From the sequence record MH355584.1: a DNA stretch of 64,000 nt; one strand, given 5' to 3'. The stretch comes from Escherichia phage vB_EcoM_JB75. This document shows, piece after piece, positions 36,079-37,882 of the stretch. The notes below the pieces were generated by a model. That model saw only the letters and a program-made list of their open reading frames with translations. It had not been told where the DNA came from and did not search any database. The translations under genes and the position numbers were made by a program. Every line of letters starts with the position of its first letter. Position 1 is the first letter of the stretch.

Positions 36079-36693
36079 ATGAAAATGAAAATGCAAAGTG
36101 ATTTCAATTCAATGTTTGAAGAGTTCCAAAGACAGGTTGATGTTCCAGACCAATTACTAAATGCTCTTAAACGCATGGCAGAAGGACGTAATTACTATTG
36201 GGGGTCTTCATATGAAACTGATGAAAGCCTTTCCGGAAGATTTTCTAGAGGTAAAAAGTCTTTAATACGTCCTGGAATACTCATTAACAGTATTGAATCA
36301 ATTCATTCATTGACATGCGATTTTGATGTTGAATTTACTGATTTCATTTCTCCTGAATGGACGGTATGTTATTTAAACGACGATTTTGATTATCTCGGTG
36401 TTTATAGTTTAAGTGACGCATGGTTTAAACGTAATTTACAAAAGTCAAATTTATTCTATATTGATACTACAGTAAAATTTCAGGGAAAGAAATATTTCTT
36501 TACTCTTATAGTTGATTCTGAAACGAAGCATGAAAATAAACGTATTCTTAGTAAAAGAAATATCTTGAATATTGTTGATGATCTTTTTGATAAATTAGTG
36601 GAAAATCCTAATTTTGAAAGTGATTTATTACTAGAAAAATTTGTTAAGGAATGTAGAGAATATGTCAAAACCATCACTATACCTTCCAAGTAA
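36079..36693 (+). CDS. hypothetical protein
   Basis: 204 aa; C-terminus EKFVKECREYVK resembles the C-termini of the next three genes. Confidence 0.5.
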   Translation: MKMKMQSDFNSMFEEFQRQVDVPDQLLNALKRMAEGRNYYWGSSYETDESLSGRFSRGKKSLIRPGILINSIESIHSLTCDFDVEFTDFISPEWTVCYLNDDFDYLGVYSLSDAWFKRNLQKSNLFYIDTTVKFQGKKYFFTLIVDSETKHENKRILSKRNILNIVDDLFDKLVENPNFESDLLLEKFVKECREYVKTITIPSK

Positions 36694-37054
36694 ACCGTTG
36701 AAGTATGAATTAAAGCGTCAGATAATTTCTACTGATGTGTTAATAGGTCCTGTTATACTCATATCATTTGTAATTCTATTGATTATTGGAGGTGTTTTAG
36801 ATGTTATGACTGATATTGATTCTGGCGAAATACTTGTGTTAATGCTAATTCTTCCATTAATAGTTCCACTTTTATTAGTACCCGTAAATTGGGTAGGATA
36901 CTGGTATCAAGGAAGGCATTATCGTAAACGCGTACGTGATTGGAAAGCACAGTGTAAAAAGATTAAAAAGGAACATCAGCTTAAACTTGCTGCGCATGAA
37001 TTTGATGAAATTATGAAATTTGTTAAGGAATCACGATGCAAAAGCCAAAACTAA
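36662..37054 (+). CDS. small membrane protein, paralogue 1
   Basis: Track ORF from 36641; ATG at 36662; two predicted TM helices; ends EIMKFVKESRCK. Confidence 0.5.
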   Translation: MSKPSLYLPSKPLKYELKRQIISTDVLIGPVILISFVILLIIGGVLDVMTDIDSGEILVLMLILPLIVPLLLVPVNWVGYWYQGRHYRKRVRDWKAQCKKIKKEHQLKLAAHEFDEIMKFVKESRCKSQN

Positions 37055-37398
37055 ATAAAGTCAAATATTCGTTTCCAGAGGCACTATTAATTCTTGCCGT
37101 ATCAGCATTTGCAGCTCTTGCAGGTAGTCTTATTGGATTGTTAATTGATTGTTTTATTTTAAACATCGACGGCACAGTAATTATAACAGAGGTTTGGAGT
37201 GAACTTCGTTTTACTATAGCGATTTCATTATTTTCATTCTTTGGTACCATGTTATATTTTCATTATGATAATTTTAAAATAAATTGGCAAAGAAAAAAGG
37301 ATTACAAAATACAATTAAAAGAATATAATAGCTACATGTCTTATATTGAAAATGAGTCAATGAAAGAGTTTGTGAGTGATTGTAGGAAAATTAAATGA
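37036..37398 (+). CDS. small membrane protein, paralogue 2
   Basis: 120 aa, two hydrophobic helices; ends EFVSDCRKIK. Confidence 0.5.
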   Translation: MQKPKLNKVKYSFPEALLILAVSAFAALAGSLIGLLIDCFILNIDGTVIITEVWSELRFTIAISLFSFFGTMLYFHYDNFKINWQRKKDYKIQLKEYNSYMSYIENESMKEFVSDCRKIK

Positions 37399-37513
37399 TT
37401 TTAAAAACTCGCTGGTATGATTTAGATGATGGGGATGATGGCATTTCAGTTGATAGAGTTGACTGGAATGGTTGTTCCGAAGATATGAAAATTTGTTGAT
37501 TAGGGAGTTTAGA

Positions 37514-37863
37514 ATGGGATATCAAGCAGCTAAGCCATTTACTGTAACAGATGATAAGTTCGTATGTATTCAAAACGGTCGCGCTAAGTTAACGAATGCT
37601 GATTGGTTCACAGATAAGAAGGTTCTTCTGTGGTATATCATTAGTCTTCCTATATCATCGTTCGTATTTTACTTTTTTATAAAAAATCCAATGGACAGAA
37701 TAGGAGATTGGGTTCTTTTAACTATACTTGTTAATATTTTTACAGCAGCAGTATTATCAGGAATATGGCGTATGTTCATTGAAATGCCATGGCGTTTACG
37801 CAGACAACAAAAGATTTTTGATGAAAAGAAATATACTCAAAATTTAAATAACTTTATCACTGA

Positions 37864-37882
<19 letters not shown>
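37514..37882 (+). CDS. small membrane protein, paralogue 3
   Basis: Track ORF from 37472; ATG at 37514 behind GGGAG; hydrophobic helices; ends [10 protein letters not shown]. Confidence 0.5.

Follow-up and report, generated by a model that had tools for sequence, protein, structure and literature searches.

The DNA analysed here is a stretch of 64,000 nucleotides (nt) of Escherichia phage vB_EcoM_JB75 (record MH355584.1; one strand, 5' to 3'), which we call the window, and our subject is a run of four consecutive genes within it whose proteins carry variants of one short peptide motif at their ends. The four are e.5, e.4, e.3, and e.2 of phage T4 (names follow the T4 annotation, and each protein matches its own PHROG), i.e. 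the same genes as UniProt P39223, P39222, P32274, and P32273, respectively. Positions 35400-38900 are 97-98.5% identical to many T4-like phages, and the window belongs to Tequatrovirus. In their intact parts the window proteins are ~84-99% identical to those of T4, with identical gene order and overlaps. Databases hold the four as unrelated families, with separate PHROGs (2203, 2330, 2604, and 2607 for e.2 to e.5) and separate Pfam identifiers: e.5 homologues carry the precomputed PF26876, close e.4 homologues PF26873, and e.2 homologues PF26896. For e.3 we find 45 homologues at ≥74% identity and no Pfam identifier.

All four genes lie on the plus strand. The first, e.5 (36079-36693), encodes a soluble protein of 204 amino acids (aa) that matches PHROG 2607 over residues 3-204 (E = 3e-109). 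It overlaps by 32 nt with e.4 (36662-37054; 130 aa; PHROG 2604, E = 1.4e-70, residues 1-130), which has predicted transmembrane (TM) segments at residues 31-49 and 57-75. This gene in turn overlaps by 19 nt with e.3 (37036-37398; 120 aa; PHROG 2330, E = 1.3e-57, residues 1-118), a predicted two-TM hairpin. The e.3/e.2 and e.2/nudE junctions are ATGA overlaps, and the array is coupled to nudE (Nudix hydrolase; 37864-38319, plus strand), which starts either at 37864 (MQEIK...) or at 37879 (MKTL..., the ATGA overlap).

The last gene, e.2, is split in the window. Intact e.2 encodes 162 aa, as in phage ASO78A, and a run of five A in the intact gene is reduced to four at 37488-37491, so that the first 34 codons (37395-37499) are in a different frame from 37514-37882. 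Both halves match the e.2 profile (full length ~162-166 aa) as separate open reading frames (ORFs). The N-terminal 34-aa ORF, which aligns to intact ASO78A e.2, matches positions 1-32 of PHROG 2203 and also PHROG 35263; the C-terminal 122 aa, with two TM segments, match positions 47-166 of PHROG 2203 (E = 1.5e-54). The 1-nt deletion may be a real mutation and part of recurrent inactivation, or a homopolymer sequencing error. Reference T4 has a broken e.2 as well (102 aa), with two frame changes at other places, and several other phage genomes have 122-aa versions in their annotation. A GGAG lies 8 nt upstream of the ATG at 37514, so the membrane part of e.2 may still be translated separately.

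An earlier note on this DNA had drawn attention to four ORFs starting at 36079, 36662, 37036, and 37514, all of which are present. It gave the right ends for the last two, and it took the 122-aa ORF for a whole gene, having missed the frameshift. For the first two its ends need correction: e.5 does not stop at ECREYVK but runs on to TITIPSK at 36693, and e.4 does not stop at KFVKESRCK but at FVKESRCKSQN (37054), with the motif variant E-S-R-C.

A shared motif at the ends of four genes

The protein ends are EKFVKECREYVKTITIPSK for e.5, KFVKESRCKSQN for e.4, and EFVSDCRKIK, directly before the stop codon, for e.3; e.2 ends with the same motif. In e.5 the motif occupies residues 188-193 (codons TTTGTTAAGGAATGTAGA, F-V-K-E-C-R, 36640-36657, plus strand); the 11 residues after it form an extension overlapping the e.4 start. 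The e.4 copy is encoded by TTTGTTAAGGAATCACGA (37019-37036, plus strand; F-V-K-E-S-R, with the Cys shifted to +6), and the e.3 ATG at 37036 starts inside its Arg codon. For the last two genes the motif codons are continuous with the junction to the next gene: TTTGTGAGTGATTGTAGGAAAATTAAATGA at the e.3/e.2 junction (37369-37398, plus strand) and TTTATCACTGAATGCAGGAAATTAAAATGA at the e.2/nudE junction (37853-37882, plus strand).

This arrangement is very unlikely to be fortuitous. The pattern F[VIL]x[ED][CS]R matches only 6 times when the 64 kb are translated in all six frames, and 4 of these matches are the ends of e.5, e.4, e.3, and e.2. In 2,000 shuffles of the 87 plus-strand ORFs, the number of ORFs with the motif among their final 20 residues never rose above one, compared with the four observed; nor does the motif occur at any of the ~40 other tightly packed plus-strand junctions of the window. 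The shared ending that had been proposed for the four genes is thus nonrandom. We propose to define an "FIxxCR-tail" family by F-[IVL]-x-x-C-R within the last 25 residues. By this definition e.5, e.3, and e.2 are members, and e.4 carries the variant F-V-K-E-S-R-C.

Predicted topology of the membrane members

By Kyte-Doolittle hydropathy e.4, e.3, and e.2 have a pair of TM segments apiece and e.5 lacks any; the AlphaFold2 model of e.3 agrees, which bears out the suggestion that three of the four genes encode small membrane proteins. In the window e.4, e.3, and e.2 the loops between the TM segments hold 0-2 K/R, the tails hold 10-15 K/R (the e.4 tail is basic and 55 aa long), and the N-terminal stretch is basic in e.4 and e.3. 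This positive-inside charge distribution points to an N-in/C-in topology, and e.4, e.3, and e.2 are therefore predicted to be inner-membrane two-TM hairpins with basic helical tails in the cytoplasm. The periplasmic loops of e.2-e.4 have only 7-19 residues, which would leave the larger, conserved portions of these proteins on the cytoplasmic side. Specifically, the e.3 model (predicted local distance difference test, pLDDT, 85) has a helix at residues 13-42 (TM1), a short loop, and an unbroken helix from TM2 to the motif (58-119). The e.5 model is weaker (pLDDT 64) and places the motif within a C-terminal helix (183-198).

Conservation of the motif across T-even phages

In a second clade (phage JK45, Mosigvirus, RB69-type) the orthologues are 30-53% identical to those of the window and keep the motif, with the rest of the tail diverged, and the motif is the best-conserved stretch of every tail. 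Here e.5 carries FIMECREYVK..., e.4 ends in FVKEIRCKSLNS (FVKEIRC) before the stop codon, and the proteins that follow end in FIKECRK and FITECRNLR. JK45 adds a fifth member of 101 aa, a two-TM protein that ends in NFIKECRGK.

The corresponding regions of six further phages were retrieved with nudE as anchor. In phages of Jiaodavirus, Kanagawavirus, Roskildevirus, and Dhakavirus, and in a Karamvirus-like phage, an e.5-like soluble protein is encoded directly after e.6 and is followed by 2-5 further genes, mostly for two-TM proteins and in a few cases for small soluble ones. Each of these phages has 2-5 motif genes, most of them between e.6 and nudE (one Jiaodavirus motif ORF lies just downstream of nudE), and their tails include FIKYCRERVQK, FIKGCRNGRN, FIDDCRRARK, FISECRTKR, FIEDCRK, and FIEECRK, all directly before the stop codon. 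The nudE-anchored region of a Slopekvirus phage has no motif genes. Klebsiella phage KpV477 carries a 102-aa soluble ORF ending in LELFIAKCRAK between nudE and e (L014, 6455-6763), thus not in the customary slot from e.6 to nudE.

With the strict form of the motif, F[IVL]xxCR, we count 21 ORFs at eight loci in seven Tevenvirinae genera, where shuffling predicts no more than 0.012 per locus. In all of them the motif falls inside the final 25 residues. More broadly, the consensus reads [LIFV]-[END]-x-F-I-x-[EDY]-C-R-[K/E/G]. The four genes do share the motif, and the set that carries it is in fact wider, with soluble proteins of roughly 96-135 aa also among its members.

Conservation concerns the peptide and not just the junction DNA to which the earlier note pointed. 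Motif copies differ in synonymous codons (TTT/TTC, TGT/TGC, AGA/AGG/CGA), and the motif persists in seven genes in which it lies 43-197 nt from the next start. For example, the ENFIKECR shared by JK45 e.3 and its 101-aa paralogue differs at 4 of 8 codons, all synonymously, so that recent gene conversion is ruled out. Among seven aligned e.5-like proteins (16-46% identity) the only invariant residues are M1, N100, F188, C192, and R193. Read from these sequence comparisons, the pattern demonstrates that selection on the peptide keeps the motif.

A second tandem family lies close to the motif genes in several of these phages. It consists of 2-5 consecutive small soluble ORFs (65-106 aa) ending in GWV(S/A)SSxxC or W(Y/F)xSSC directly before the stop codon, which stand beside or among the FIxxCR-tail genes in JK45, Mosigvirus, Kanagawavirus, the Karamvirus-like phage, and Dhakavirus, and directly after e.3 in JK45 and Mosigvirus (L003, 3231-4025; L004, 2857-3651; L015, 1293-2907; L016, 2132-2658; L019, 1293-2332). 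This family is absent from the window.

Relationships among the families

Profile comparison with hhalign aligns e.3 with e.4 over 37 tail columns (E = 2e-4) and e.3 with e.2 over 14 columns, i.e. the last 14 residues (E = 1.3e-4). It detects no similarity between e.4 and e.2, and none between the TM regions of any pair. Likewise, BLASTP among e.4, e.3, and e.2 gives weak tail matches only. The N-termini of e.3 and e.4 are alike (MQKPKL...KY and MSKPSL...KY; MxKPxL). The proposal of a tandemly diversified family is thus reasonable as far as shared architecture and termini go, which is short of a demonstration of whole-length homology. Similarity is confined to the tails, as a mere junction effect would have it, but the two-TM topology is well supported. 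Tandem duplication is the most likely origin of the membrane members, which would then have diverged along their whole length apart from the termini, a reading that the shared architecture and termini, rather than whole-length similarity, make reasonable.

Junction DNA and cassette loss

Since the motif stands at the very end of its gene, the same nucleotides usually double as the ribosome-binding region of the gene that follows. The Shine-Dalgarno sequence is supplied by motif codons, AAGGAA in e.5 and e.4 and AGGAAA in e.3 and e.2; the copy in e.5 serves the e.4 ATG at 36662. The overlap of motif DNA with the Shine-Dalgarno region and start of the next gene is therefore as originally described, and so are the conserved junction blocks TGTAGGAAAATTAAATGA (37381-37398) and TGCAGGAAATTAAAATGA (37865-37882), each of which holds an ATGA start/stop overlap.

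These junctions are also points of recombination. In phage T2 and contig L007, e.2 is gone and e.3 is joined straight to nudE through a hybrid junction that reads GATTG and then CAGGAAATTAAAATGA. The left part comes from e.3 and the right part from the end of e.2, so that e.3 now ends in CRKLK; the e.3/e.2 and e.2/nudE junctions of the window correspond to the left and right partners of this deletion. As judged from the hybrid sequence, T2-type loss of e.2 demonstrates that motif repeats act as recombination sites, in frame, and gives substance to the conserved junction sequences that had been postulated. By tblastn in the phage collection, e.5 and e.4 are found in 643 records, e.3 in 607, and e.2 in 533.

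Other rearrangements take place elsewhere. UFV-type phages have an in-frame e.4(1-31)::e.2 chimera fused within TM1, away from the motif; in phage UFV11 (L013, 1201-1521; protein P0053) it replaces e.4, e.3, and e.2, with the crossover in ATCAT-type microhomology in TM1-coding DNA. Some e.3/e.4 variants have lost the two-TM hairpin and kept the N-terminus and the motif tail DNA (L009, 3340-3520; protein P0138, in frame). Promoter-like matches in the region number 25, not above the 21.3 expected from shuffling, and no stem-loop is found at the junctions.

Neighbouring genes, expression, and searches for function

The gene upstream of the array is e.6 (35444-36037, plus strand; 197 aa; PHROG 1203), which encodes a soluble, helical protein with an amphipathic N-terminus. 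In all genera examined it precedes the e.5-like gene, and its identity across genera (51-88%) is far above that of the motif genes downstream. We considered whether e.6 is PspA/IM30-like and rejected this: a PDB profile search gave no match at E ≤ 10, hhalign against Escherichia coli PspA gave a probability of 0.7%, and there was no Pfam or NCBIfam match. A G+C-rich stem-loop at 36040-36061, between e.6 and e.5, is a terminator in the annotation of phage ASO78A. On the other side of the array, nudE lies just upstream of the lysozyme gene e (38357-38851).

In T4, the transcripts of e.2-e.6 are early and all five proteins are detected by mass spectrometry, according to the supplement of PMC9697503, whose proteomic classes list e.3 as late-accumulating and e.2 and e.6 as middle. 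Knock-down of e.2-e.8 is listed without a fitness effect in laboratory E. coli in the supplement of PMC11879866. A T4 transposon study does not mention e.2-e.8.

Searches of e.6, e.5, e.4, e.3, and e.2 against Pfam, NCBIfam, and PADLOC return nothing above noise, and the Imm, Sp, holin, and antiholin families of Pfam and NCBIfam have no match to these proteins even at E ≤ 1. When 5.8 billion proteins are searched by word index, the queries e.3, e.5, and a profile of seven paralogue sequences find T-even orthologues, fragments, and chimeras only; the same is true of an exhaustive HMMER profile search of 1.84 billion representatives, which gives 11 matches (e.2, e.3, e.4). Neither search reveals a more distant family by sequence. 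Scanning IMG/VR with the e.4 profile yields 6 loci, and a search of IMG/VR with back-translated E-N-F-I-x-E-C-R yields T-even members only, plus chance matches in tiny ORFs. There are no convincing structural neighbours of e.5, BFVD giving just uncharacterised e.5-like proteins of other Straboviridae. The I-x-E within FIxECR was considered as a site for the gp21 protease and set aside, as only the T4 and RB69 groups conserve the Glu. Literature searches by gene name and accession find no functional study, and the genes appear in supplementary tables only. Many deposited phage genomes label e.3/e.4 orthologues "sulfurtransferase" or "DNA primase" and e.6 orthologues "host specificity protein," labels for which our family searches give no support.

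Possible roles of the motif

In our best overall explanation, to which we give about even credence, e.5-e.4-e.3-e.2 is an early, translationally coupled accessory array, present in T-even-type phages only, all members of which are predicted to end in a cytoplasmic alpha-helix with hydrophobic-x-x-F-[I/V]-x-x-C-R, then basic residues; at the e.4 position, which is the first membrane gene of each array, V, I, or S stands for the C. In e.4, e.3, and e.2, TM2 is predicted to extend into the cytoplasm as a long basic helix, and e.5 is soluble. The motif would be a common docking or assembly element that presents differently anchored proteins to one cytoplasmic partner, of host or phage, or that alternatively joins the products of the array into a single membrane-associated complex. 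At the DNA level, its repetition provides the microhomology at which whole cassettes drop out or fuse in frame, as in the T2 loss of e.2.

We infer docking or assembly as the most likely role because the motif is the most conserved element among proteins that otherwise share nothing, because membrane-anchored and soluble proteins alike carry it, in both cases facing one side of the membrane, and because it would offer one hydrophobic face (i-3, i, i+1, i+4) at an exposed helix end. Dispensability in laboratory hosts and frequent decay of the genes fit accessories in host range, competition, or anti-defence. More tentatively, and by analogy with the N-terminal capsid-targeting sequence, the FIxxCR tail could be a phage "address tag" that plugs a changing set of early proteins into one conserved cytoplasmic hub, of host or phage, with two-TM anchors with varied loops and soluble modules such as e.5 gathering at the inner membrane early in infection.

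Several observations weigh against a docking or assembly helix. Genes at the e.4 position (e.g. FIKEVR, FIRNVR, and FVKQVR in other genera) and a few other members have V, I, L, or S in the place of the Cys, which therefore cannot be universally essential. Heptads in the tails have 43-75% hydrophobic residues at a/d compared with ~31-41% elsewhere, a modest pattern that does not demonstrate coiled-coil assembly, and we do not claim a coiled-coil reading of the tails. The TM regions of the families have no detectable sequence homology, and an alternative origin is that the motif was gained by recombination onto unrelated genes. Finally, the distance from the F codon to the start of the gene downstream is 17-33 nt for 19 of the 27 motif genes compared across genera, so ribosome-binding constraints probably shape positions +2 and +3 (K/E-E: AAGGAA, GAGGAA) and probably contribute to the conservation of the motif there; they cannot explain F, I, C, and R.

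The last point is the core of a rival explanation, in which the motif is a by-product of translational coupling, its nucleotides conserved because the following gene uses them for Shine-Dalgarno and initiation, and its peptide without function. All four window motifs lie 17-26 nt upstream of the next coupled start (for e.2, 11 nt from the alternative nudE start at 37864), AAGGAA or AGGAAA in the motif is the sole Shine-Dalgarno-like sequence before e.4, e.3, e.2, and nudE, and one unrelated ATGA junction of the window also ends in RKSLK. We nevertheless regard this as quite improbable, since the Shine-Dalgarno falls on different motif positions (in e.5 and e.4 the codons for K-E, in e.3 and e.2 those for R-K), the F, I/V, C, and R codons are synonymous or different (I/V as GTT/GTG/ATT/ATC), the ~40 other coupled junctions do without the motif, the seven distant copies have no downstream start within 43 nt, and F, C, and R are invariant in e.5-like proteins otherwise 16-22% identical. 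Slightly less probable still is that the junction is a recombination device, a coding analogue of PeSL cassettes kept for swapping genes with frame and coupling intact. The precise e.2 deletion does cross over inside TGCAGGAAA, ~110 of the 643 records with e.5 and e.4 have no e.2 match, the number and kind of motif genes in the same slot differ by genus, and the e.5 and e.4 motifs share 16 identical nt in the T4 clade. However, the microhomologies are short (9-16 nt) and not conserved as DNA between genera or most paralogues, the TM1 chimera and the internal hairpin deletions bypass the motif, and selection for evolvability is weak compared with the strong conservation of the peptide.

Two further rivals concern the proteins. 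The membrane members could be superinfection-exclusion or lysis-timing proteins, as the earlier note suggested, with the motif incidental. They are small, early, nonessential inner-membrane proteins by prediction, and their presence and absence, chimeras, and decay among related phages are typical of competition or arms-race genes. We consider this unlikely, given that nothing in them resembles Imm, Sp, a holin, an antiholin, or any Pfam, NCBIfam, or PADLOC model, that their short periplasmic loops leave the larger, conserved parts in the cytoplasm, and that a purely envelope-level function would not explain the motif on soluble e.5 and the soluble ~96-135-aa members. Slightly less probable is a C-terminal degradation tag, by which a host AAA+ protease (ClpXP, FtsH, Lon) or a phage factor would limit early proteins to a time window. 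The motif is always ≤25 residues from the C-terminus, on what is predicted to be a cytoplasmic, exposed helix end, and basic residues follow it (RKIK, RKLK, RRK, RARK), resembling the basic C-terminal MuA-type class of ClpX recognition. The genes are also of the early class in the PMC9697503 supplement; by contrast, the late accumulation of e.3 and the middle accumulation of e.2 and e.6 in the T4 proteomics given there do not suggest rapid removal. In addition, the residues after the Arg vary in length (1-15) and sequence, whereas degrons are usually set by the extreme terminus. All of these rivals are less well supported than docking or assembly.

Significance and comparison with known systems

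That these genes are T4 orphans is already known, and so is the membrane prediction: e.2-e.4 of T4 have long been annotated as "conserved hypothetical, predicted membrane protein." In the databases and papers searched we did not find a record of the shared tail motif, its spread over at least seven genera, or its part in cassette loss. The finding is modest but real. In T4, the best-studied large phage, e.2-e.5 have stood as orphan families; one C-terminal motif links them, in membrane and soluble proteins alike and in at least seven genera, and its ~10 residues are a concrete experimental handle for mutation, for use as bait, and for searching. The block also illustrates cleanly, in nature, how a coding motif repeated at overlapping junctions permits in-frame cassette loss or fusion. 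If the address tag were true, knowing the hub would place an entire block of T4 "dark-matter" genes in a pathway together.

Among known systems, the PeSL (promoter-early stem-loop) cassettes of T4-type hyperplastic regions are intergenic promoter and terminator modules (Arbiol et al. 2010, PMC2839356), in which a terminator stem-loop comes after a strong early promoter of sigma-70 type. Like the motif junctions, they are short repeats flanking nonessential T4-type genes, and recombination at them inserts, deletes, or replaces genes. The motif junctions differ in being coding and overlapping, in having no promoter or stem-loop, and in being conserved as peptide, and only one of the observed rearrangements uses the motif. 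T4 Imm and other small early phage membrane proteins are similar to e.2-e.4 in size, early expression, inner-membrane location, and dispensability; e.2-e.4, however, have no sequence or family match to Imm, and the bulk of them outside the membrane is predicted to be cytoplasmic.

By analogy, the closest conceptual precedent for the FIxxCR tail would be the N-terminal capsid-targeting sequence of the T-even internal proteins (IPI/II/III, Alt), which sends them into the prohead and is cleaved off by the gp21 protease. The window has three polymorphic Ip genes, with leaders MKSYAQFLNEA (33340-33813), MKTYAEFLTEA (33939-34502), and MKTYQEFITEA (38940-39413), flanking the block. No leader of the type MKxYxEF[IL]xE[AS] is present in the four motif proteins, whose N-termini are MKMKMQSDF, MSKPSLYL, MQKPKLNK, and MILKTRWY. 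The two elements differ in that the capsid-targeting sequence is N-terminal, whereas the FIxxCR motif is C-terminal and sits on membrane-anchored and soluble early proteins. Both are short conserved terminal peptides on otherwise unrelated, polymorphic, tandem T-even accessory proteins, and the capsid-targeting sequence is an instance of T-even phages directing diverse proteins to a common destination by a short shared tag.

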